Source: Promethearchaeota archaeon
GTDB taxonomy: Archaea > Asgardarchaeota > Lokiarchaeia > Sigyniarchaeales > SOKP01
DNA length: 42,852 nucleotides
NCBI GenBank assembly: GCA_048941265.1
Contig: JBHLNT010000019.1
Coordinates: forward strand, 1-42,852
Direction of reading: 5' to 3'
Shown here: positions 1,775 to 26,624 of the stretch, piece after piece
Layout: every line of letters starts with the position of its first letter
Numbering within the stretch: position 1 is the stretch's first letter
Translations under genes and position numbers: made by a program
The notes under the pieces: model-generated
Seen by the model: the letters and a program-made list of their open reading frames with translations, nothing else
What the model was told of the DNA's origin: nothing
Database searches by the model: none

Positions 1775-2248
1775 TTATTTTAAAAAATAATGAGCAAAAT
1801 ATTCGTCATCCTTTCCGTATTTTTTAAGTAGAATAGTTTTAAATTTTCCAATATCTAATCTGTTTTTCACTTTCTCTCATCAACATCCTGAATCGGGTTG
1901 TAAATCAATTACACTATCAGCATATAAATTGAAACCTATATTATCTCGGAGCGGCATAAACTTTCTTAAATTCCCTTCATCGTCCAGACCATAGGGCATC
2001 AGTCCTACATCGTCATATATTTTGTTTTCTTCAGGATCCCAAAATAGTTGCAGATAATTGTGAATATAACCATCGAATATCGGGAAAATTGATTCTTTGG
2101 GATTTTCAAATACAAATTTGTCAACCATCGCTAAAGCTTCAACAAATGTCGCATTATCTTTAACAAAAACAACGAAATCTTTGCCTTTTGATAATCCGCT
2201 TAACGTCAAGCTTATTTTGAGTGTAATCTTTTTAATTTTAATAATCAC
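1775..2248 (-). CDS. Uncharacterised selenoprotein B with CUU motif (possible beta-grasp N-domain plus helical tail)
   Basis: The ORF track stops at TGA 1880-1882. A second TGA follows (1877-1879), then the frame continues EKVKNRLDIGKFKTILLKKYGKDDEYFAHYFLK-TAA, clearly homologous to the read-through tail of the upstream paralogue. Start uncertain (TTG 2281, GTG 2248 or ATT 2236). Confidence 0.85.
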
Positions 2249-2312
2249 CTTTGGTATATTAAAATTTTGAATATTTACCAAATTATTTATAAGTTTTAAT
2301 TATAAAGAATTT

Positions 2313-2370
2313 CAGGACGCAATCCTATTGTCAACCTTTCACAAGCATTTATTGAAAGATGTCATTCAAA
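2313..2370 (-). promoter_or_regulatory. SECIS-like element copy 3 plus downstream hairpin
   Basis: UUUG-AAU-GA-C-AUCUUUCA-AUAAAUGCUUG-UGAAAGGU-U-GA-CAA-UAGGA-UUGCG-UCCUG, directly after the TAA at 2371-2373. Confidence 0.85.
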
Positions 2371-2811
2371 TTATTTTATTTTAAATTTAAAGTAATGAGC
2401 AAAAGTTTCATGGTCTTTTCCGTATTTTTTCATAACAATCCGTTTAAATGTACCAAAATCTAATCTTTCTCGCATAACATCAGCTCATCAATCAGCATGA
2501 ACGGATAAAGTGATATTACTATCGGGATATAACTTTACATCAGCATTTTCCATTATAGGCATAAACTCTCTATTTGGACCATACGCATTAACCGCGCAAT
2601 CTTCATAAATCTTATTTTTTTCTGGATTCCAAATTAATTGAAGATAACTATGAATCAATCCCTTATATAAAGGAAAAATAGACTTTTCTGGATTTTCATA
2701 TATCTTTTTATCTATCTCACTTAATGCGTCAACAATAGTGCCCTCTTCATTAATTTTAACTTCAAAATCGATACCATTTGTAAGCGGTTTTTCCGGTGCG
2801 ATTATGGTCAA
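2371..2811 (-). CDS. Uncharacterised selenoprotein A with UU motif; paralogue of 1775..2248
   Basis: Tandem TGA at 2488-2490 and 2485-2487, then ADVMRERLDFGTFKRIVMKKYGKDHETFAHYFKFKIK-TAA. The first TGA aligns without gaps to a Cys (TGT) in the paralogue. Start may be ATA 2826 after GGTGGTGA. Confidence 0.85.
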
Positions 2812-2874
2812 TTTTATTCTCTTTATTTTTTCACCACCCTTGTATTTTAAATAAAATAGATTTTAAACAGATGA

Positions 2875-3264
2875 TTATTTAAGACCTTTATCCTTTAGGA
2901 GTTGAGGTAAATCCTTCTTTAATGCATAAGAAGTGGTATATTTTTTCTCTCCATCAACTAAAACACATTTGCTCCTTAAACCAAGCTGACGAGCCTCTTC
3001 AGAATTTAAGTTTTTTGTTTCATGTTTAATATACTTTATATAAGGTGTAAGTGCACTAAAAATAAGATTCATAAATTGCGACCACTCACAGGCGCATGCG
3101 TCGAGAGGCACATATATATCGACATTTAATTTATTTGGATCTAAAGGTTTTTTAATTACCTCATTAATTGAATCATTTTTGATATCAATGTCATCACTTG
3201 CACAGCAGGATGAGTTAGGTGTACAACAGGGGCTTTCAATTTTATTTACTTCTTTTTCTTCCAT
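2875..3264 (-). CDS. Cys-rich putative metal(loid)-binding protein, thioredoxin/ArsD-like
   Basis: N-terminal CC..CC (SPCCTPNSSCC), then VDIYVPLDACAC and a CVLVDGEKKY strand reminiscent of thioredoxin-fold/ArsD proteins; lies in an ars-type operon. Confidence 0.5.
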   Translation of the reverse strand: MEEKEVNKIESPCCTPNSSCCASDDIDIKNDSINEVIKKPLDPNKLNVDIYVPLDACACEWSQFMNLIFSALTPYIKYIKHETKNLNSEEARQLGLRSKCVLVDGEKKYTTSYALKKDLPQLLKDKGLK

Positions 3265-3325
3265 ATAATTTCACTTCCAATTTTGATTTAGATTTAATTA
3301 ACTTATTCCAATATTAAATTCCAAT

Positions 3326-3637
3326 TTAACCACAGCATGAGTTTTGTTGTGAATTTTTTGCTCTTTGACGAGCATCCCACAAACAACCACATCCCTTTTG
3401 TTCCTGCATAATAATAGCTTGAGTAGGGCAATTTCTAAAACAAGCACTACATTCAGTGCAAAGTTCTGGATGCTTAATTTCATATTTACCAGAATTAATT
3501 TGTTGAGGTAGCCCGAAAGGGCATACTTCACCACATAATCCACATCCAATGCATGCAGAATCACTAATAAAAATACGAGGTAGTTCAATTGTTTGAGGAG
3601 TGCAACATGAACTCTCATTTGCTTTTAATTCTGTCAT
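3326..3637 (-). CDS. hgcB: HgcB-like 2[4Fe-4S] ferredoxin
   Basis: Two CxxCxxCxxxCP motifs (CIGCGLCGEVCP, CTECSACFRNCP), a GCGC segment and a C-terminal CC; directly downstream of an hgcA-like gene. Confidence 0.72.
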   Translation of the reverse strand: MTELKANESSCCTPQTIELPRIFISDSACIGCGLCGEVCPFGLPQQINSGKYEIKHPELCTECSACFRNCPTQAIIMQEQKGCGCLWDARQRAKNSQQNSCCG

Positions 3638-3678: not shown

Positions 3679-5328
3679 TTAAATTATATAAAATATTATT
3701 CCAAAAGCTAAAAAAATTAAGCTTATAATTAGTAAAATTTTATTAATTCGCGAAAATAAGAGGTATTCTGCCTGAATCTCTCTAGGACTTGTTGACATTG
3801 TATATCCGCTAAAAGACATCGTTGAAAAAAAGGCGATCCAAAAATAAAAGCTCAAGTTCCAGAGAATAAAGAGAAATGATTGATATAATATCCAAGAAAT
3901 CCCTCCAAAAATTATTACGTTTAAAGTTCCAAAGAATAATCCTTTAATAATAAATCTTCTCGTGAAGTTTGAAATAGGTAATAAAAGAGCAATAAGCATA
4001 TTTGTTAAAATAATCCAAATGAATATTTCACCTATCCACCATAGCTTATTTGACCAATTCAATGCTAGCAGTAAAAATACTATTCCTATTAAAGGCAAAA
4101 GAAAAATTTTTCGCAAAAGAAATGTTGTATGCGTTATTCCTGCCCGGATTCGATGGGATATCGAGAATTTGGCAAGTTTCATATTATCTGGTTTTTGTTT
4201 CGGTCTTTCTTTAATATACTTCGTAATATCCTTAGACCATATTGGACCATAGACAATTTTAAATGGAAATTCTTCAGAATTTTTCGGCAATTGTGGTATA
4301 GCAACACCACCGGCAGAGAGTTGGGGGAGTATTAAGATCTTCTTGCGTGTAAGATTGTGAATTCCAGTTGCCTCAACAGCTTCAAGTAATTGTTTATTAC
4401 CAAAATCGTTTCCACGAGCAGCACACCATACATTAATGCCATTAGAATCAACACATAAAACCCATGCATCAATTCCTTTTAGACTACGCATTACTTTTAT
4501 ATATGTATATTCATAATTCGCTGTAACTATTATCGGTGAATATTCATCAGGATGTCCTGATTGATAGATTCCTGGTTCTACCGGAACACGGTCAATCTGA
4601 CCCGTGAACAAACACCGATAAATCCTTAATTGAGAGCGAATCCCTTTAAATCTTTTAAGGTTGGGGCGATAATATCCTGGAGTATCACCATCCTTTACTA
4701 ATTCTATGGCTTGTATGGAACCATGTTTCCAAGATTTTTGGGCATTAATTTTAAAGCCGATTGGTTCGATATAATTAATGAACCATTTTACGAGAAAGGT
4801 ACTTTTTAATCGGAGTCTGTGTAATTTCTTTTTAAACCACCACCGCTTTAATTTAAAAATTAGCTTCCAAAAGCCCGAAGGAATAGTTTCTGCGGCTAAT
4901 ATTAATCGCCCATCTGGTTTCAGTGAGTTCCAGGCATTTCGTAAAAATATTTGTTGCTCAAGAGGTCTAAGTTCAGATAACATAAAAGTACTTACGACTA
5001 TATCCTTTGAGCTCTTTTCAATCGGAAAATCCTTAAGTGATCCTATTTGATATAAAAGATTGACATTTGCCTCAGATGGATAATTTTGCATGGCATAATT
5101 AATCATTTGGAAGTTCTTATCAATTGCAACCACATTATTTCCTTTTATTGCCATTTTCTTCGCAAGAGTACCAGTGCCACAGCCTACCTCTAGTATGGAT
5201 TGGGAATCCTGAATACAATCTAATACCCACTCTTGAACATCAAGATTTACACCCTTAGTAAGAGCTGTAAATTTTGAATCATAAGTTTCTGGCTCTTCCT
5301 CCAATTTTCGCATATAAGTTACGGCCAT
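3679..5328 (-). CDS. hgcA: Fusion of a class I SAM methyltransferase (CpaM-like) with an HgcA-like corrinoid protein and C-terminal TM helices
   Basis: LEVGCGTG SAM motif I; VEPGIY..G.PD..SPIIVTANY and GINVWCAARG cap-helix-like motif (canonical N(V/I)WCA(A/G)GK); LILPQLSAGGV; about 5 C-terminal TM segments. Confidence 0.75.
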   Translation of the reverse strand: MAVTYMRKLEEEPETYDSKFTALTKGVNLDVQEWVLDCIQDSQSILEVGCGTGTLAKKMAIKGNNVVAIDKNFQMINYAMQNYPSEANVNLLYQIGSLKDFPIEKSSKDIVVSTFMLSELRPLEQQIFLRNAWNSLKPDGRLILAAETIPSGFWKLIFKLKRWWFKKKLHRLRLKSTFLVKWFINYIEPIGFKINAQKSWKHGSIQAIELVKDGDTPGYYRPNLKRFKGIRSQLRIYRCLFTGQIDRVPVEPGIYQSGHPDEYSPIIVTANYEYTYIKVMRSLKGIDAWVLCVDSNGINVWCAARGNDFGNKQLLEAVEATGIHNLTRKKILILPQLSAGGVAIPQLPKNSEEFPFKIVYGPIWSKDITKYIKERPKQKPDNMKLAKFSISHRIRAGITHTTFLLRKIFLLPLIGIVFLLLALNWSNKLWWIGEIFIWIILTNMLIALLLPISNFTRRFIIKGLFFGTLNVIIFGGISWILYQSFLFILWNLSFYFWIAFFSTMSFSGYTMSTSPREIQAEYLLFSRINKILLIISLIFLAFGIIFYII

Positions 5329-5353: not shown

Positions 5354-6415
5354 TTATTCTGGGGGGTTCCAAAAGCCTCGCTTTTGAAGATATCTTCCTA
5401 AATAAACTATTGAAAGCATAACAGGAACTTCCCAGAACAATCCCATTGTAGTTCCTAATGCGGCAATCGATCCAATCCCATATATGGCAATCGCAGTAGC
5501 AATTGCAATTTCGAAATGACTTGAAGAGCCGATAATTACTGTGACAACAGCCTCTTTGTATTTAAGCTTAAAAAGCTTGGTAATAATCACATTATAGCTA
5601 ACAACGATTGCAAATCCAACCAGGAGAGGTATGCTAACTAAGAGTAAAAGTTCAGGATTTTTAAGTAAAACGTCTCCATTTAATGAAAAAAGGATAATCA
5701 ATGTTATTAGTAGTGCTACAACTGAAACTTTTCCTACCATAGGACGATAGGTGCCTTCAAACCATTCTTCCCCTTTTTTTTGTGTTAATAATCTTTTAGA
5801 TATTAATCCTAACGCTAAGGGGAGTCCTATAAAGAATATCAATGAAATTATTAATAAAGTTGTATCAATTGGAATATTTTGGATGCCAGTTAATAGAACA
5901 ACGATAGGAACATAAAGAAATATAATTGTTATGGTATTTAAACTGGTATTGGTGACATTTTGCTCTTGGTTTCCTCTAGCCATCCAACCCCATACAAGGA
6001 CCATTGCAGTACATGGTGAAGCAGAAAGTAAAATAATTGCTACTATTAACTGTTCATGACCAGCTAAAAAGATCCTTGCCATCATTAAACCAACAAAAGG
6101 GGCTACAATCCAATTAGAGATTAAGGTTAAAATTATCGGTTTTGGATTTTTCCCTAATTTTTTCAATTCAGATGCCTGGAGATTTAGCATTCCTGGATAC
6201 ATCATCAAGAATAGACATATCCCAATAGGAATAGAAATTTGGCCGATTGACCAGGAATTAATGGTTTCGCTAATTCCTGGAACAACTTGAGAAAGTACTA
6301 TTCCGGCAAGAATGCATAATGCCACCCATAGTGGTAAAAATTTACCAAAGAGACCTAATTCATGGGGTGTTCCTGCTTTATTTCTTATATCATTTTTAGC
6401 TTGTAGTTCACTCAT
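5354..6415 (-). CDS. acr3: Acr3-family arsenite efflux transporter
   Basis: PIGICLFLMMYP, NWIVAPF, ASPCTAMVLVW (conserved Cys), SSHFEIAIATA and EVPVML motifs; about 10 TM. Confidence 0.93.
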   Translation of the reverse strand: MSELQAKNDIRNKAGTPHELGLFGKFLPLWVALCILAGIVLSQVVPGISETINSWSIGQISIPIGICLFLMMYPGMLNLQASELKKLGKNPKPIILTLISNWIVAPFVGLMMARIFLAGHEQLIVAIILLSASPCTAMVLVWGWMARGNQEQNVTNTSLNTITIIFLYVPIVVLLTGIQNIPIDTTLLIISLIFFIGLPLALGLISKRLLTQKKGEEWFEGTYRPMVGKVSVVALLITLIILFSLNGDVLLKNPELLLLVSIPLLVGFAIVVSYNVIITKLFKLKYKEAVVTVIIGSSSHFEIAIATAIAIYGIGSIAALGTTMGLFWEVPVMLSIVYLGRYLQKRGFWNPPE

Positions 6416-6417
6416 TT

Positions 6418-7164
6418 TTAATTAACCTCATTTAATAGTAGTCTAGAAGTACTCATCCTTCTAGAATATTCATCTCTCATGTTATCGATGAATTGCCTTA
6501 AATTCTCATTAATTTGAGATAAATCTTCAGGAGGTATAGCATTTAGAAGTGATACTAGGTGATTGATTCCAGCAACTTCCTTATCGCATGTGTGACCAAA
6601 CCGTGGAGCGCGACATTCATGGCAGACACTTAAGGCAAAATTTTGAAGATTTTCTGTGTTAAAATCCTTATCTAAAAGAAATTTTGCCCCAGCTTCAGAG
6701 GAACCGCATAGTGAAGATCGCTTTACTATAATTTCTCTAAATTTACCATCTTCATCAATTTTAGGCTCATATATAGGTCTTCCGTAAAAAGTCGTAAATT
6801 CATCTACTTCTGGTATTCCCGTATCATTTTCTAGAGAACACATAGTTGGAGCATGAATGACTTGAGGATTTATTTTTCTCGCTTGAATTAATAGCCCTAC
6901 ACCGGGCAATACACCGAGTATTAACGGCTTCTGAAGTTCTGCTAGTTCTAAAATAAGATCAGGATGTCGAACGTAAGAAATGTATATATCGCAATCGGGG
7001 ATATTAAGTTTAAAATCATCATCCAGCATTAGATTAGAAGGTATTTCAGGAACCAGAATCCATACTACTTCAAAATTCTTCTTAATATTTTCAAAAGCTC
7101 TTTCACCGTACTTTCCATCTGACACTAATCCAACTTTTAAATTTTTAAATAAATGAGATGTCAT
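6418..7164 (-). CDS. DUF166-family protein
   Basis: GKYGERA, HPDL, CSL, RSSLCGS and CRA motifs typical of archaeal DUF166; first gene of the operon. Confidence 0.65.
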   Translation of the reverse strand: MTSHLFKNLKVGLVSDGKYGERAFENIKKNFEVVWILVPEIPSNLMLDDDFKLNIPDCDIYISYVRHPDLILELAELQKPLILGVLPGVGLLIQARKINPQVIHAPTMCSLENDTGIPEVDEFTTFYGRPIYEPKIDEDGKFREIIVKRSSLCGSSEAGAKFLLDKDFNTENLQNFALSVCHECRAPRFGHTCDKEVAGINHLVSLLNAIPPEDLSQINENLRQFIDNMRDEYSRRMSTSRLLLNEVN

Positions 7165-7234
7165 TATTCAATTTTCTTTAAAATATGGGTTAAAATATAT
7201 TTTTAAGGTTCAAGATATTAATAGAATTAATCAG

Positions 7235-7280
7235 ATTTATACTTATCGATTTGGACGTTAAATTTATATTTATCGATTTG
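7235..7280. promoter_or_regulatory. Candidate ArsR operator: 19-bp direct repeat
   Basis: ATTTATACTTATCGATTTG (7235-7253) and ATTTATATTTATCGATTTG (7262-7280), 18/19 identical, in the divergent promoter region. Confidence 0.45.
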
Positions 7281-7327
7281 TTATATATTATAGAGAATTA
7301 AAGATTTTTCAAATTTTTGTAAATATT

Positions 7328-7729
7328 GTGATAATCATGAATACTAAACGTAAGGCTGAACTAATGGATATGTTATGCTCATGTAATGGTGTATGCAGTT
7401 CTAGTAAACATTTTGAGGATTTACAATTTATAGGGCAAGAATTAAAGTTTGATGAAAATTACGTAAATATGGCTAACTTTGGAACTGCGATTTCGTCTAT
7501 AGAACGTCTAATCATTCTCAATTCGTTAAAAGAAAAAGATAGATGCGTTTGTGAACTCGAAGCGATCCTTGATAAGTCACAATCTACAATTTCTCATCAT
7601 CTTAGGAAGCTAGAGAGAGCAAATTTGATAATGAGTTGGAAAAAGGGTAGTTATACTTATTACGGATTAAAAAAGGAACAATTACAGTCATTTTTAGAAA
7701 TATTGAATAAGGTATTTAATTCTGTTTGA
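7328..7729 (+). CDS. arsR: ArsR/SmtB metal(loid)-sensing repressor
   Basis: RCVCEL...SQSTISHHLRKL wHTH (ELCVCDL-like As(III) site) plus N-terminal CSCNGVC; divergent from acr3. Likely start is ATG 7337. Confidence 0.9.
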   Translation: MIIMNTKRKAELMDMLCSCNGVCSSSKHFEDLQFIGQELKFDENYVNMANFGTAISSIERLIILNSLKEKDRCVCELEAILDKSQSTISHHLRKLERANLIMSWKKGSYTYYGLKKEQLQSFLEILNKVFNSV

Positions 7730-9248: not shown

Positions 9249-12200
9249 ATGGCAACTCAATCCCTGAAAAATGATGTTTTTATTAGAAAAGTAATTTTAG
9301 AGAATTTTCTAAGTTTTAAAAGGGATGAGGTTGATTTAGATAATAAAAAATTTATACTTGTGATTGGCCCTAACTGGTCTGGCAAAACATCTATTTTTCA
9401 AGCAATTAAATTTGCATTGGGTAGCAATGAGAGAGATGAACGTTATAAAAAATGGTCTGACTTTATAAGGCATGGACAAAACCACGCTATGGTTGAGCTT
9501 AATATCCAAAAAGGTCAAGATTTAATAAAAATTAGAAGAATTGTCATAAGAGGTCAATCACCTCACTTCTTAATTAAGAAAAAAGATGATAAAGATTTTA
9601 GAAAAGCCCAAGCATTAGAGATTCAAAAGATAATTAATGATTTGAGTTATAATCCAGATAATCACTTCGCTTTCGTTAGTCAAGGTAAAATCGATGCTAT
9701 TAAAAATCTAAAACCCTCAGAATTATGCAATTTTCTTGAAGAGGGGATTGGATTAAAAAACTTAAGAGAAGAAATATTACAGCAGAAACATAGTGTATTG
9801 AATTTGAATAATGAATTGAAATCCTTAAAGAGTAAAAAAAATGTACTAAATATTAGTTTAGATCTCTTACAACCTAAGCTTGAAAGATTAGAACAAAAGC
9901 ATAAATTATTAGATGTGAAAAGGAAATATGAAGACGAGCTACTTTGGGCAAACCGACATAAGTTAAAGGAAGAGATTAAGTATCTCCAAAGAGATTATTC
10001 TAAAGTTAAAGTCGAAATAGATGAGATAAAAGTTAAAAAGGAGAAAATAGATAAGGAAGTTCAACGGCTAGAAACGCAGCTTTTTAAATCAGATCAAATT
10101 ATAAATTATCTTAATAGTAAATTAGGACAAAATCAACAAAAAAGAAAAGATTTAATTGCTGAAGTTAAAAAATGGCAAATAGACGAAATTAAGATTACTC
10201 AAGATTTAAAAAAGATATCTGAGCATATTAAGAGGGAAAAGAAAGAACTTAAAAATTATAAAAATCAAAAAAAGAGCTTAACTCAAGAAACTAAATTAAT
10301 TAAAGAAAAAGTAAATAATATTGAACTACATCTTGATGATTTGATTAAAGAACAAGATGATTTACAAAAAAAAATAAACCGAGATAAAGAATTTGTTGAA
10401 CAATTCAACCAAATAACTTCTGAAAAGGAGTCTAGACAAAAAGAAATTCAAGCAAATAAAAGTGAAATTAAAACAATAAATGATGAGATTAATCAAATTT
10501 TTCAAAGTCTTAAGGATATCGATCATAAATTAGAGCAAAATAAATGGTTTTTAGAAGATCGAACACAAAATCTATTAAAAAAGCTTGACAATGAGCATAG
10601 GAAAGTTAATTCAAACCAATATACAATTCAATTTAAAAAAGAACAATTAGAACAAGAACGATATAAGAAATTAAATAAATTCAATCATCTCCAAGAATCA
10701 CTTCGGAAAAGAAAAATCATTTATCCTTTTAAGTCAAACATAGAACTTCTAAAAGTAGAAATAAAAAAGCGAGATTTAAGAGTAAAGGGTCCAATAGTTG
10801 AATATCTTAAATATGATGATTCACTGAGCTATGCTATTGAATCCGTGTTAGGCGAACGATTACTATTTAGTTTTATTGCTGATGATTGGGAAACAATGAC
10901 CCTAATGCAAAGGTTAAGAGAAAGTACTAGAGCAATTTGCAATATCTATGTTCCTAGAAATATTAATGTGTCGAAATATCCACCAATTACAGCCAAGGGT
11001 ATTATTGGATATTTAATAGAATTAATTGATATTGTTGGAAATGATCAAGACATTAAAAAAGTACTATATTCTAAAGTGAGGAATTGTATGGTGGTTGAAG
11101 ATTATCGTAGCGGGGTAGAACTTTATAGAAATTTTAATTTTAAAGGTAAATGTGTGACGTTAAAAGGGAAGCAAATTACCTCATATAAATACGTATATGA
11201 AACCCCATATATAAAAACATTAAAAGGGTTATTAAGTGCAGGCACTCAGAGAGAACAAGCAAACAAATTAGAATCTGAAATAGAATCTTTAAATGAACAG
11301 ATTTTAGAATGCGATGTAAGGTTATCTAAATTAGATAAAGAACTGTTAGAGATATTAAGAAAGAAGGAAGCATATCACGATTTATCTTATATTTTTAGTC
11401 AAAAGCAGCGTCTAACATCAAAAAAGAATAAGCTTTATGAAGATCGGACTGTTTTAGAAAATAGAAATTCAGAATTTTTAAAGAATATGAAAGATTTGGA
11501 TCTTAAAATTAAAGAAATTCAATCTAAAACAAGTCCTGAATTTTTTAAATGGAATGATCGAATCAAAGAAATTCCTACGGAGCTTAAAGTGTATAATAAT
11601 GAAAAAAAGAAATGGAATCTAAAACTTAAAGAAAATGATCAGACTTTAAATGAGGTTGAAACCAAGATTAATACACAGAATCATACTATTTCTCTGCTTG
11701 ATCAGGAATTTAAGACAAAAGATGAGGATTTAAAAAAAAGACACAAAGAAGCATATTCTATTTACAATAAATTAGGAAAGTTAGAAGATAAGATCACTGA
11801 AATAGAAAAAAAAATATCGGATTTAACTGAAGAGAAGCTCAATATTCATGAAAAGAAAAGGACATTTGACATTAATAATATTCAAATAAACGTCCAACTT
11901 GAGCAAGAAAACATTCATTTAAATTATATAGGTCAAAAGTTAGAAGCGAAAAAGGAAGATTTAGAAAGAATTAATTCACAAATTGGGCCTTTAGTTTCAG
12001 AGAATAAAATTAAACTACGGTCAATAGAAGAAATAGAGATGGACATATTAAAAGTCGACAAAGACCTAATAAAGTTTTTAGATGTCGATGATGCTCTGCT
12101 AGTCGAGCGTGATCAAATACTAACCGGTTTAAAGGAAATAGCAAATAATCAAAAAGACCTGGAAAAGGATATTGGTGCTGCGATTAAAACCGAAAGTAAA

Positions 12201-12689
12201 ATGGAAGACACATATTACACTAAATTTGAACACGTACTTAACGATTTGAAATTGAAAATAAATCGGAAATTCAAATCTTCTGAAATTAAAGCCTATTGTT
12301 CACTTGAGTTGATGGGTGACTTTGAGAATTTAGGAGTAGAAATAAAAGCAGCGCTTTCAAAAAACCAATTACGATCATTTACAGCTTTGAGTGGAGGTCA
12401 AGTGTCTATGATCTCAATTTGTTTAATACTCTCTCTCCAAGAATTAAAGCCTTCTCCACTTTGTATGTTAGATGAAGCAGCAATGTTCCTCGATGATAAA
12501 AATTCGGAAGTGGCCTATCAAATGATCAAATCTACTCTCAAACAAAATCCAGATATCCAGATGATAATTTTCTTACCTAAATCGTCAAATGCTTTATATC
12601 TCCTTGCAGAAAAACTAATTGGTGTTGCAAGGACAGGTAAAGACGAAGTTTCTACAATATTTAAACCAAAAGTAATTCGAAAAGATTAA
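9249..12689 (+). CDS. smc: SMC-family ATPase, Smc5/6-like
   Basis: Walker A GPNWSGKT, Q-loop NPDNHFAFVSQ, two long coiled coils around a hinge (VKGPIVEYL), signature LSGGQ, Walker B SPLCMLDEAAMFLD. Confidence 0.9.
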   Translation: MATQSLKNDVFIRKVILENFLSFKRDEVDLDNKKFILVIGPNWSGKTSIFQAIKFALGSNERDERYKKWSDFIRHGQNHAMVELNIQKGQDLIKIRRIVIRGQSPHFLIKKKDDKDFRKAQALEIQKIINDLSYNPDNHFAFVSQGKIDAIKNLKPSELCNFLEEGIGLKNLREEILQQKHSVLNLNNELKSLKSKKNVLNISLDLLQPKLERLEQKHKLLDVKRKYEDELLWANRHKLKEEIKYLQRDYSKVKVEIDEIKVKKEKIDKEVQRLETQLFKSDQIINYLNSKLGQNQQKRKDLIAEVKKWQIDEIKITQDLKKISEHIKREKKELKNYKNQKKSLTQETKLIKEKVNNIELHLDDLIKEQDDLQKKINRDKEFVEQFNQITSEKESRQKEIQANKSEIKTINDEINQIFQSLKDIDHKLEQNKWFLEDRTQNLLKKLDNEHRKVNSNQYTIQFKKEQLEQERYKKLNKFNHLQESLRKRKIIYPFKSNIELLKVEIKKRDLRVKGPIVEYLKYDDSLSYAIESVLGERLLFSFIADDWETMTLMQRLRESTRAICNIYVPRNINVSKYPPITAKGIIGYLIELIDIVGNDQDIKKVLYSKVRNCMVVEDYRSGVELYRNFNFKGKCVTLKGKQITSYKYVYETPYIKTLKGLLSAGTQREQANKLESEIESLNEQILECDVRLSKLDKELLEILRKKEAYHDLSYIFSQKQRLTSKKNKLYEDRTVLENRNSEFLKNMKDLDLKIKEIQSKTSPEFFKWNDRIKEIPTELKVYNNEKKKWNLKLKENDQTLNEVETKINTQNHTISLLDQEFKTKDEDLKKRHKEAYSIYNKLGKLEDKITEIEKKISDLTEEKLNIHEKKRTFDINNIQINVQLEQENIHLNYIGQKLEAKKEDLERINSQIGPLVSENKIKLRSIEEIEMDILKVDKDLIKFLDVDDALLVERDQILTGLKEIANNQKDLEKDIGAAIKTESKMEDTYYTKFEHVLNDLKLKINRKFKSSEIKAYCSLELMGDFENLGVEIKAALSKNQLRSFTALSGGQVSMISICLILSLQELKPSPLCMLDEAAMFLDDKNSEVAYQMIKSTLKQNPDIQMIIFLPKSSNALYLLAEKLIGVARTGKDEVSTIFKPKVIRKD

Positions 12690-24845: not shown

Positions 24846-25256
24846 ATGTCAACACTTAAAATAATAAAGGATGAGGAAATAGACGATAAAAAATCATATT
24901 TAGATTCTCTTAGGAAAATTTTGAAAAAATTATTATTTATTATACCCGAAGTGAGAATGGCAGCAATTTTGTCGCAAGATGGATTACCAATAGCTTCAAC
25001 GCTTTCACATGACATTGATGAAACACAAATAGCGGCATTAACTGCATCAATTTTATGCATGGCTGAAAAAACTTCTTTAAAATTACGAGCAGGTTTTTTG
25101 GAACAGATATGCATACATTGTTCTGATCGCAATTTACTGATTTTAACAGCAGGTCAAAATGCTATTTTAACGGTTTCCACCACTAAAAATGTGAACATTG
25201 ATCTAATTTTTCTTGGCTGTAGAAAAATATGTGAAGAAATTGCCTCAATCGTATAA
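24846..25256 (+). CDS. Roadblock/LC7 domain protein
   Basis: AAILSQDGLPIASTL...IAALTASIL...AGQNAILTV. Confidence 0.9.
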   Translation: MSTLKIIKDEEIDDKKSYLDSLRKILKKLLFIIPEVRMAAILSQDGLPIASTLSHDIDETQIAALTASILCMAEKTSLKLRAGFLEQICIHCSDRNLLILTAGQNAILTVSTTKNVNIDLIFLGCRKICEEIASIV

Positions 25257-25364
25257 AAAGATTCAACTATAAACCAAGAAAATCTATGATTTTTGCATAA
25301 ACTGTAAAATTTGGAAATTAAGGAGATTTTAAAGAAAAATTGAAACAAGATTGAAGATAAATTA

Positions 25365-26624
25365 ATGACGAAAGCTTCTTTTAAAATTTTAGTGGTTGGT
25401 GCTTCTGGGGTTGGTAAAACTACTCTTCTTGAGCAAATTGTAAAAGGAAAATCCAAAAAAGATGCTAAAGAGACCATAGGAGTAAGTTTTTATACACATG
25501 AAGTTTATATTGATGATGAAAAGTATCTACTGCAATTTTGGGACTTTATACAGAAAGAAAGATTTGAGTTTCTTTTTAGAACTTACGTGAAAGGTACAAA
25601 TGCAGCCATTATTGTGTTTGATTGGTCCAGAGTTGATACCTTAATTTATGTCCAGGCATATCTTAAAATGATTCGAGAAGCAATCAAGTCGAATATACCA
25701 TTCTTAATTGTTGGCAATAAAACAGATTTGGTTGATGACTTAGATTCATTTAATAGAACTGCTATTCGTGAAATTTTTGATGAGGAGGGAGGCTTTTACA
25801 TAGAAAGTTCAAAGAATAATACAGAAAATTTAGAAAAAGCCTTTATAGAATTGATACGAAGAATTGGCGAATTAGAAGTAATTGAAGTTTTAGGAAAAAA
25901 TACTAATTTAAAGATTTTAATAGCTTTAAATATCTTTTCTGAATTAACGTTAAATAAGCTTGCCAGTCTTACAAATAAAAGCAAGGCCACCCTTTCCCGT
26001 TATACCAGATCGCTAGAAAAATCTGGACTTGTTAAATCATATAATAAAGAAAAAGAGAAACAACCAGGTTCTATTAAGAAGAAATTTTATACAGCGAATT
26101 TTAATTTAGATGTTAATTTGAAAGATATAGATTTTAGCAATATTGATAAAAAATCTATAAAAGAAATTAAGTTATTTAGGGGAGAATTAAATAGAAAGTT
26201 ATACACAATTTTGATTTATGATCAATTCAATAATATGTTAAATAATCTTATTGTTAAGTTTCCGGGAGGAAAATGGACAACCACGCCTTTAATATTATCT
26301 TCTCTCAAGGATAGGAACAGGAGTAAGGATATAAGTAATATCATTGATCTTTTTATAAAACTTTCAATTAACTTACGGTTTTTAAATGAAAATCAGTATT
26401 ATAAGCTAGAATCCTTAAAACGCGAATTCTATATAAAATTTAACAAGATTCTGGAAGAAGATGATGGTTCAAAAAAAAATTATGTTTACATAGATGCAGT
26501 CTTACCGATTTTACAATTAATGGAGCTAGAGGGATTTCAATATAAAAAAGATCCAGATGCGCTTAAAAAATTAACTGAGCAAATCGATAAATTAAGACAA
26601 GAAAGGAAAAGTAAAAACGATTAA
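25365..26624 (+). CDS. Rab-like small GTPase fused to a winged-helix (ArsR/MarR-like) domain
   Basis: GASGVGKT, TIGVSF, WDFIQKERF, VGNKTD, ESSK; then LTLNKLASLTNKSKATLSRYTRSLEKSGLV wHTH. Confidence 0.85.
   Translation: MTKASFKILVVGASGVGKTTLLEQIVKGKSKKDAKETIGVSFYTHEVYIDDEKYLLQFWDFIQKERFEFLFRTYVKGTNAAIIVFDWSRVDTLIYVQAYLKMIREAIKSNIPFLIVGNKTDLVDDLDSFNRTAIREIFDEEGGFYIESSKNNTENLEKAFIELIRRIGELEVIEVLGKNTNLKILIALNIFSELTLNKLASLTNKSKATLSRYTRSLEKSGLVKSYNKEKEKQPGSIKKKFYTANFNLDVNLKDIDFSNIDKKSIKEIKLFRGELNRKLYTILIYDQFNNMLNNLIVKFPGGKWTTTPLILSSLKDRNRSKDISNIIDLFIKLSINLRFLNENQYYKLESLKREFYIKFNKILEEDDGSKKNYVYIDAVLPILQLMELEGFQYKKDPDALKKLTEQIDKLRQERKSKND

Follow-up and report, generated by a model that had tools for sequence, protein, structure and literature searches.

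A CpaM-like methyltransferase fused to an HgcA-like corrinoid protein in an ars-type operon of Asgard archaea

The window considered here is a 42,852-nucleotide (nt) stretch of contig JBHLNT010000019.1 (positions 1 to 42,852; assembly GCA_048941265.1) from a Promethearchaeota archaeon. Its minus strand carries a gene (3679..5328) for a protein of 549 aa in which a CpaM-like S-adenosylmethionine (SAM) methyltransferase precedes an HgcA-like corrinoid domain and a domain of five transmembrane (TM) helices, as recognized from the open reading frame (ORF), Pfam, NCBIfam, an AlphaFold2 model and Foldseek. An earlier note, made from the DNA letters alone, had described this three-part fusion at exactly these coordinates, leaving the strand unstated. 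The frame opens with ATG and continues for 549 uninterrupted codons with zero internal stops. The ars context that the note had pointed out is borne out by an ArsR-family regulator and an arsenite efflux permease of the ACR3 type in the same cluster; overlooked were the HgcB-like gene directly downstream of the fusion and the other conserved members of the operon.

The fusion protein and its operon

The methyltransferase domain spans residues 1-215 (4684..5328, minus strand) and contains motif I, GCGTG, at residues 49-53. Pfam recognizes Methyltransf_25 at residues 45-140 (E 3e-15), and the best NCBIfam family is CpaM, the corrinoid protein-associated methyltransferase (NF043040), to which residues 4-209 align over 211 of the 216 model positions (3-213) with 138.8 bits, below the cut-off of 180; the N-terminal domain is thus CpaM-like, as had been proposed. 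The corrinoid-binding domain, of the CFeSP type, follows at residues 234-385 (4174..4629, minus strand) and matches CdhD (PF03599) at residues 234-339 (E 6.3e-15), its closest solved sequence relative being the CFeSP gamma subunit, 2h9a_A (E 1.8e-8, residues 240-375). Its translation contains the cap motif NVWCAARG at residues 299-306 (4411..4434, minus strand), in which Cys302 is the putative cobalt ligand; the retained cysteine and the RG in place of GK are both as the earlier note read them. The TM domain occupies residues 390-548 (3682..4161, minus strand), and its five helices are seen by hydropathy and in the predicted secondary structure (390-422, 430-453, 459-482, 485-509 and 515-548).

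The AlphaFold2 model, built with 75 homologues, has a mean predicted local distance difference test score (pLDDT) of 91.7 and a predicted template-modeling score (pTM) of 0.88. Its best Foldseek match in the PDB is the deposited HgcAB model 9a0b_A (E 6.6e-13, 328 columns), and the other PDB fold matches are class I methyltransferases, which match the N-terminal third. A complex prediction of the methyltransferase domain (1-215) against residues 234-549 with SAM gave scores of 0.19 and 0.31 against a mark of 0.32 and weighs neither way.

The methyltransferase domain is 33% identical to the bona fide CpaM of its own genome, N-terminal signature included, and 26% identical to the ArsM of a relative over the Rossmann core only; on the ArsM model NF008823 the fusion scores 32-33 bits (cut-off 263). 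Both proteins have the class I SAM methyltransferase fold and occur in ars operons, but the window domain would methylate cobalt and not arsenic. Its only cysteines are Cys38 and Cys50, and it lacks the arsenic-binding cysteines of ArsM. Because of these two points, the paucity of cysteines and the resemblance to CpaM rather than ArsM, the domain is unlikely to methylate arsenic directly. The free-standing CpaM of the genome (253.3 bits on NF043040, cut-off 180) is encoded on the minus strand at positions 59-736 of a 2.2-kb contig (L003, G000:C214) and ends 58 nt from the contig end; an HgcAB-like partner for it was found nowhere in the assembly, and a second CpaM/HgcAB-like system may be present in this genome unassembled.

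The operon, also on the minus strand, runs in the order DUF166, ACR3, fusion, HgcB-like ferredoxin, a 129-aa protein and two small paralogues, with gaps of 2, 25, 41, 61 and 63 nt in that order. The first gene (6418..7164) encodes a DUF166 protein (PF02593, E 4.9e-26). The next (5354..6415), 25 nt upstream of the fusion, encodes a 353-aa ACR3 arsenite efflux permease, which scores 282.4 bits on TIGR00832, just under the cut-off of 282.8, and is the only ACR3 found in the genome. The ferredoxin gene (3326..3637), 41 nt downstream of the fusion, encodes a 103-aa protein with two [4Fe-4S] clusters that scores 53.5 bits on HgcB NF040864 (cut-off 99). An ArsR/SmtB metalloregulator (PF01022, NF033788), with a CVC in helix alpha-3 and an N-terminal Cys cluster, is encoded divergently on the plus strand (7328..7729). 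The region between it and the operon (7165..7327) is a divergent promoter region and a candidate operator, in which inspection by eye found AT-rich palindromes and the direct repeat TTATCGATTTG, whose two copies lie near 7244 and 7270, 26 nt apart (7244-7284). A search for Rfam riboswitches gave 0 matches.

In the window ferredoxin the second cluster is followed by a GCGC motif and the chain ends in a Cys pair. This tail, GCGC(L/I/V)W...CC, is typical of the partners of RG-type fusions, with GCGC in 29 of 29 rows and CC in 26, the other three having CxC. Canonical HgcB tails read GVGC...C.C...CC, and Chloroflexota-type partners have no Cys tail. An overlapping ORF of 106 aa (3298-3618, minus strand), in a different frame from the ferredoxin gene, shows no credible match to any family and probably does not represent a real gene.

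The 129-aa protein (2875..3264, minus strand) combines a disordered, Cys-rich N-terminus with a thioredoxin-fold core, as judged from alignment, AlphaFold2 and Foldseek. It had no Pfam or NCBIfam match, and a profile search of the PDB gave 0 matches. In an alignment of 21 sequences C57, C59 and W61 are invariant, within the motif VPL.xCxCxW. The core is modeled with a pLDDT of about 85-90, and all of its top 50 Foldseek matches are thioredoxins, weak but uniform (best E 2.4e-3). From this predicted fold and the invariant CxC we infer that the protein may be a thiol-based chaperone or redox helper. The two tandem small paralogues (1880..2811, minus strand) have 107 aa (2488-2811) and 133 aa (1880-2281), the latter probably starting at Met25. 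Neither has a Pfam or NCBIfam family match, and the ESM Atlas gave weak beta-grasp-type leads only, with scores up to 0.83. The pair in the window corresponds to a single copy in relatives.

Relationship to HgcA, HgcAB-like and CpaM proteins

Besides CpaM, the best-in-class NCBIfam matches of the fusion, all of them under the cut-off, are HgcA (NF040863; residues 249-539, 171.9 bits, cut-off 275) and HgcAB-like (NF043039; 173.9 bits, cut-off 285). The controls behaved differently. A split Asgard pair (L052) exceeds both cut-offs with 282.3 bits for CpaM and 397.6 for HgcAB-like, a triple fusion (L053) scores 384.8 for HgcAB-like and 260.6 for CpaM, a double fusion from Anaerolineae (L072) scores 280 for CpaM and 285.2 for HgcAB-like, and the HgcA of Peptoclostridium litorale reaches 365 bits on NF040863. 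On the CdhE model NF003195 the fusion scores 66.2 bits (cut-off 306).

Several features defining these families can be read from the protein. The strictly conserved cap cysteine of HgcA, Cys93 in ND132, corresponds to Cys302, and about five TM helices follow at the C-terminus. As in CpaM, the class I SAM-binding motifs are intact and the domain is associated, here by fusion, with an HgcA-like corrinoid protein. The HgcA cap N(V/I)WC(A/S)(A/G/S)GK and the HgcB motif C(M/I)ECGA, both as defined in passages of PMC10087281, are replaced by NVWCAARG and CTECSA, respectively. The ferredoxin, which in HgcAB-like proteins is fused at the C-terminus, is encoded by the separate gene at 3326-3637.

Compared with the named CpaM and HgcAB-like pair, the window system has the same components, namely, a CpaM-type methyltransferase, a corrinoid protein with a Cys cap and a TM domain, and a 2x[4Fe-4S] ferredoxin, and like all of them it lacks GK. 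The difference lies in what is fused to the corrinoid protein, which is the ferredoxin in the HgcAB-like proteins and the methyltransferase in the window protein. True members score 253-398 bits, whereas the window protein reaches 138.8 of 180 and 173.9 of 285, and its clade is a distinct Asgard RG clade embedded in ars operons. With canonical HgcA and HgcB it shares the CFeSP-derived corrinoid domain, the NVWC cap, the five TM helices, the adjacent ferredoxin with a C-terminal Cys pair, the ArsR-type regulator and the ars neighbors, together with SAM as the methyl source, which is shown for HgcAB and implied for the fusion. It differs from canonical HgcA by the additional N-terminal methyltransferase, by RG instead of GK, and by DS.G instead of DTKG before the cap, so that the two consensus sequences around the cap, DTKG...NVWCAAGKG and DS.G...NVWCAARG, differ in two lysines; its ferredoxin has GCGC and CTECSA where canonical HgcB has GVGC and C(M/I)ECGA.

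The large subunit of CFeSP, CdhE/AcsC, and its methyltransferase MeTr provide a further parallel, because the B12 domain is homologous and a separate methyltransferase module loads the methyl group onto Co(I). However, the methyl donor there is a methyl-pterin, and in the fusion SAM, and the fusion has neither the N-terminal Fe-S nor the TIM-barrel domain of CdhE/AcsC, while it possesses a Cys-on cap and a membrane anchor.

Three trees of the corrinoid and TM region, rooted on Asgard CdhE, were computed, one with FastTree (229 rows), one with IQ-TREE under LG+C20 with posterior mean site frequencies (PMSF; 94 rows), and one under LG+G4 (45 rows). In all three the HgcA-like proteins, including the fusion, are separated from three Asgard CdhE proteins with a support of 100. 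The CdhE of the same genome (C105) is a clear outgroup, also at 100; grouping with CdhE, the outcome that the earlier note had set against its own reading, did not occur. The GK-bearing canonical HgcA proteins form one clade that excludes the fusion, with supports of 96 (FastTree), 94 (PMSF) and 100 (LG+G4), and the Asgard RG proteins form a clade of their own (94 and 95). In the PMSF tree the RG clade joins the HgcAB-like and other methyltransferase-fused forms in a joint clade of 51 rows, with a Shimodaira-Hasegawa-like approximate likelihood-ratio test (SH-aLRT) value of 90. An approximately unbiased (AU) test on the 45-row LG+G4 data does not reject the RG clade as sister of canonical HgcA (p 0.53). 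Going by these sequence comparisons, the window protein is not a canonical HgcA and appears to be a divergent branch of the CpaM/HgcAB-like assemblage. In passages of Lin et al. (PMC10083202), Thor- and Lokiarchaeota sequences are placed within a fused-HgcAB subtree; the first 327 poorly aligned positions of that alignment were trimmed, and the methyltransferase domain is not mentioned in those passages.

The earlier note described the RG cap as a variant. RG is indeed present, and it is a trait of the clade rather than a peculiarity of this gene, since every methyltransferase-fused member lacks GK. In a collection of 229 rows, not dereplicated, GK occurs in 0 of 73 methyltransferase-fused rows and in 135 of 156 unfused rows. 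Mapped on the tree, this pattern amounts to about one event, with three independent pairs, in one of which GK differs; the idea that fusion explains the loss of GK as a statistical association was therefore dropped, and the cap difference marks clades rather than a tested functional coupling. Two canonical GK-type hgcA loci of named bacteria (L084 and L093) are preceded, at distances of 98 and 566 nt, by a gene for a CpaM-like methyltransferase, and thus the association with a methyltransferase is not exclusive to the non-GK clades.

Distribution and gene neighborhoods

The closest relatives were compared as the best 120 clusters listed, with the window's own cluster among them. The other 119 have 518-578 aa and are 64-85% identical to the fusion over 94-100% of the query; their sources are labeled Promethearchaeota, Lokiarchaeota, Hermod-, Hod-, Heimdall- and Odinarchaeota, and they are annotated only as "methyltransferase domain-containing protein". 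NVWCAARG is found in 119 of these 120 listed clusters, window included, and NVWCAARS in the remaining one. In sets of 24 and 75 diverse fusions N299, W301 and C302 are invariant; among the 75, the SAM-binding residues G49, G51, G53 and E119 are invariant as well, and D70 and D109 nearly so.

Across the phylum, 203 of 400 genomes match the fusion at E<=1e-20, as do 108 of 134 in the window's family, where a full orthologue (E<1e-100) is present in 98 of 135 genomes. A library-wide search retrieved full-length fusions down to 26-35% identity and forms of 580-644 aa bearing an additional C-terminal ferredoxin. Among named records, methyltransferase-fused forms occur in Thorarchaeota and in the bacterial groups Anaerolineae/Chloroflexota, Desulfobacteraceae, Poribacteria and Ardenticatenaceae, and an adjacent but unfused methyltransferase gene in Oligoflexia, Nitrospiria and a deltaproteobacterium. 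Across Asgard archaea and bacteria the family is thus found split, double-fused and triple-fused. An assembly artefact, the possibility that the earlier note had named against itself, is ruled out by the recurrence of the fusion in hundreds of independent assemblies. What has to be corrected is the impression of a one-off: the fusion is real, and it belongs to a broad family, both partners of which NCBIfam had already named.

The gene neighborhood was surveyed in 29 loci of the window's family with 1.5-kb flanks. The HgcB-like gene lies directly 3' of the fusion in 28 of them, the 29th ending at the contig edge; ACR3 lies upstream in 20, and in 27 the 1.5-kb flanks contain ArsR or ACR3. Genes for the 129-aa protein and for a single small paralogue are each found downstream in 18 of the 29 loci, and DUF166 stands beside the fusion in nine, a count made with these short flanks. 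A second survey covered 20 hand-picked loci from nine families, four genomes being common to both sets; all 20 have a ferredoxin, either fused or encoded by the adjacent gene, with ArsR within 7 kb in 10 and ACR3 in seven. In Thorarchaeota ArsR lies directly upstream of the fusion. All 19 distinct ArsR proteins encoded beside a fusion have CxC in helix alpha-3, and 18 of them have CVCE. Other neighbors of the relatives encode FMN reductase, flavin reductases, EamA, Na/Ca exchangers, a cation-efflux protein, CutA1 and membrane methyltransferases.

In G170, from the same genus, an intact ArsM of 293 aa (348.9 bits, cut-off 263) is encoded between ACR3 and the fusion, immediately upstream of the latter (L035:6205-7086, plus strand), and in G145 the gene order is ArsM, DUF166, fusion. 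As ArsM and the fusion share an operon in a relative, the latter does not simply take the place of ArsM. No ArsM was found in the window's genome, which is 91% complete (best score 67.4 bits). The two genes are spread over the 135 family genomes independently of each other: with the fusion counted at E<1e-100, 34 have both, 14 only ArsM, 64 only the fusion, and 23 neither.

Some further observations concern these genes and the rest of the genome. Repeated Cys pairs at the N-terminus of the G170 ArsM follow a CC(T/A)P pattern that is also seen at the N-termini of the window ferredoxin and the 129-aa protein. DUF166, whose NCBIfam family label is (seleno)protein DfsP, adjoins the fusion in two different gene orders (window 6418-7164, minus strand; L159:727-1431, minus strand). 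At locus L038 (G241) a full-length ACR3 gene (2230-3313) lies about 3.6 kb upstream of the fusion, immediately in front of which stands a remnant of 22 C-terminal ACR3 residues (6811-6876); this arrangement suggests an insertion or a rearrangement. Three tandem genes of the low-molecular-weight phosphatase/ArsC type (G000:C211:27013-28499, minus strand) are candidate arsenate reductases outside the operon. A search of the genome for MerB gave no match, and its control matched nowhere either. Elsewhere in the window a Roadblock/LC7 gene is followed by a gene for a 419-aa Ras/Roc-type GTPase (24846-26624, plus strand), a typical Asgard "eukaryotic signature" pair, and an SMC protein is encoded at 9249-12689.

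Proposed function and alternatives

The explanation that we tentatively prefer is that the fusion would be a self-contained methyl relay of the HgcAB type in an ArsR-controlled ars operon, working alongside efflux and having As(III) or its congener Sb(III) as the likeliest native substrate. By analogy with canonical HgcAB, the HgcB-like ferredoxin would reduce the cobalamin to Co(I), and the CpaM-like domain would bind SAM and methylate Co(I) to methyl-Co(III), with Cys302 as the axial ligand. Assigning this step to the fused domain is suggested by the fusion itself, by the intact SAM motifs, and by the SAM dependence published for HgcAB. Passages of PMC11588087 report that in the purified complex SAM gives rise to methyl-cob(III)alamin, in which cobalt has a thiolate ligand, and that Hg is methylated next; the statement of the earlier note that SAM is a reported HgcAB methyl donor was accurate. 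At the membrane domain, the Cys-rich ferredoxin tail would then present a thiophilic metal(loid) to receive the methyl group. ArsR and ACR3 form the core of the operon, joined in a close relative by ArsM, and this is why As(III) or Sb(III) leads among the candidate substrates. The three modules also display a Rosetta-stone pattern, as they occur as split genes (L052), as a methyltransferase-HgcA fusion with a separate ferredoxin, and as a triple fusion (L053).

A number of points weigh against this relay. For none of the three named families does the fusion reach the curated cut-off, and AlphaFold2 models the cap segment as a coil with a pLDDT of about 75. The ars association weakens with distance from the window, given that ACR3 occurs in 0 of the 7 hand-picked loci from other classes (ArsR in one) and that the bacterial members mostly lack ars neighbors. 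A second As(III) methylase looks redundant where ArsM shares the operon, and there is no complementarity between the two genes, with ArsM in 34 of 98 fusion-bearing and 14 of 37 fusion-lacking family genomes. The metal specificity of ArsR is not readable from its sequence, because a CVC in alpha-3 together with an N-terminal Cys cluster resembles soft-metal sensors generally. Finally, the ars context does not separate arsenic from mercury, as ars genes also flank the canonical hgcAB that methylates Hg: canonical hgcAB is likewise ArsR-regulated and As-responsive and often stands beside ars genes, a link already published (PMC7438021; preprint 10.1101/2022.10.17.512643).

This last point also counts for a genuine mercury methylase, in which the fusion and the HgcB-like protein would methylate Hg(II), the methyltransferase would make the SAM step explicit, and the ars linkage would reflect shared regulation. 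The NVWC cysteine, the TM domain and the adjacent ferredoxin with its C-terminal Cys pair are all the hallmarks of HgcA but GK, and the AU test keeps the Asgard clade as a possible sister to canonical HgcA. We nevertheless consider it unlikely, though still a serious rival, because the canonical clade, monophyletic with a support of 100, excludes the protein, its 171.9 bits are far from the 275 of NF040863, and the published high-stringency motifs, GK for HgcA and C(M/I)ECGA for HgcB, failed; furthermore, papers that include PMC10087281 report that the tested isolates with HgcAB-like fusions produced no methylmercury. A different view is that another soft metal or metalloid (Sb, Bi, Se, Te, Cd or Pb) is the substrate, to which the ArsR-type sensor would answer, with ACR3 co-opted or of general use. 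The cation-efflux, Na/Ca-exchanger and CutA1 genes adjoining other relatives fit this view, although the neighbors that recur are ACR3 and ArsM, both markers specific for arsenic. Sb(III) is transported by ACR3 proteins as well, and the Cys arrangement of the ArsR, with CVC in alpha-3 and an N-terminal cluster, is a layout of Cd, Pb and Bi sensors; even so, such a substrate appears quite unlikely.

The methyltransferase might instead be a repair module that only re-methylates oxidized Co(II), while the catalytic cycle uses another donor or runs in the direction of demethylating methylarsenicals, with the As(III) expelled by ACR3. The reactivation set of MetH (methionine synthase) likewise comprises a corrinoid, a low-potential ferredoxin and a SAM domain. 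Anaerobic demethylation of arsenicals has been tied to corrinoid methyltransferases and to co-transcription with acr3 in passages of the preprint 10.64898/2026.08.27.747368. However, the operon conserves neither a further methyltransferase nor a methyl acceptor, and SAM is the turnover donor for purified HgcAB in the passages of PMC11588087, so that this repair role is less likely and, in our estimate, improbable. Corrinoid chemistry other than methylation, for example, the reductive dehalogenation of halomethanes, is likewise less likely and seems very improbable: dechlorination of CCl4 by heterologous HgcAB is reported in the preprint 10.64898/2026.04.26.720869, but this chemistry has no role for the conserved in-frame SAM methyltransferase and leaves the ars context unexplained.

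Part of this picture is already known, namely, the CpaM and HgcAB-like names (NCBIfam), the fused HgcAB as a non-methylating paralogue, the ars link and SAM as the donor. In the openly licensed PMC and bioRxiv main texts no account was found of a methyltransferase-HgcA fusion, of a B12-type arsenic methylase, or of RG-type Asgard proteins forming a clade in ars operons; these sequences may be among those in the supplementary trees of PMC10083202.

The native substrate of hgcAB, and with it the reason why microbes keep these genes, is an open question in mercury biogeochemistry. A gene locked into a recognizable arsenic operon across many Asgard genomes provides a concrete, testable hypothesis about the substrate, and a fusion that hard-wires the step from SAM to cobalt gives independent support to the 2024 finding of SAM as the donor. 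It also follows that testing should come before any "hgcA-like" Asgard match in a sediment metagenome is taken for a mercury methylator. The physiology of the system may be reachable, because the clade is present in a metagenome-assembled genome of Promethearchaeum (L062), a genus with cultured members. A bolder and rather doubtful extension is that the Asgard operon is a B12-dependent, SAM-fed machine for metalloid methylation and detoxification, and that the HgcAB superfamily as a whole originally served this purpose. On this view canonical HgcA would be derived, having lost the CpaM module and acquired the cap with its lysines, DTKG...GK, perhaps to bind SAM itself, with Hg methylation as its side reaction. 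If this were true, the fusion would be a Rosetta stone linking SAM, cobalamin and metalloid chemistry in one polypeptide.

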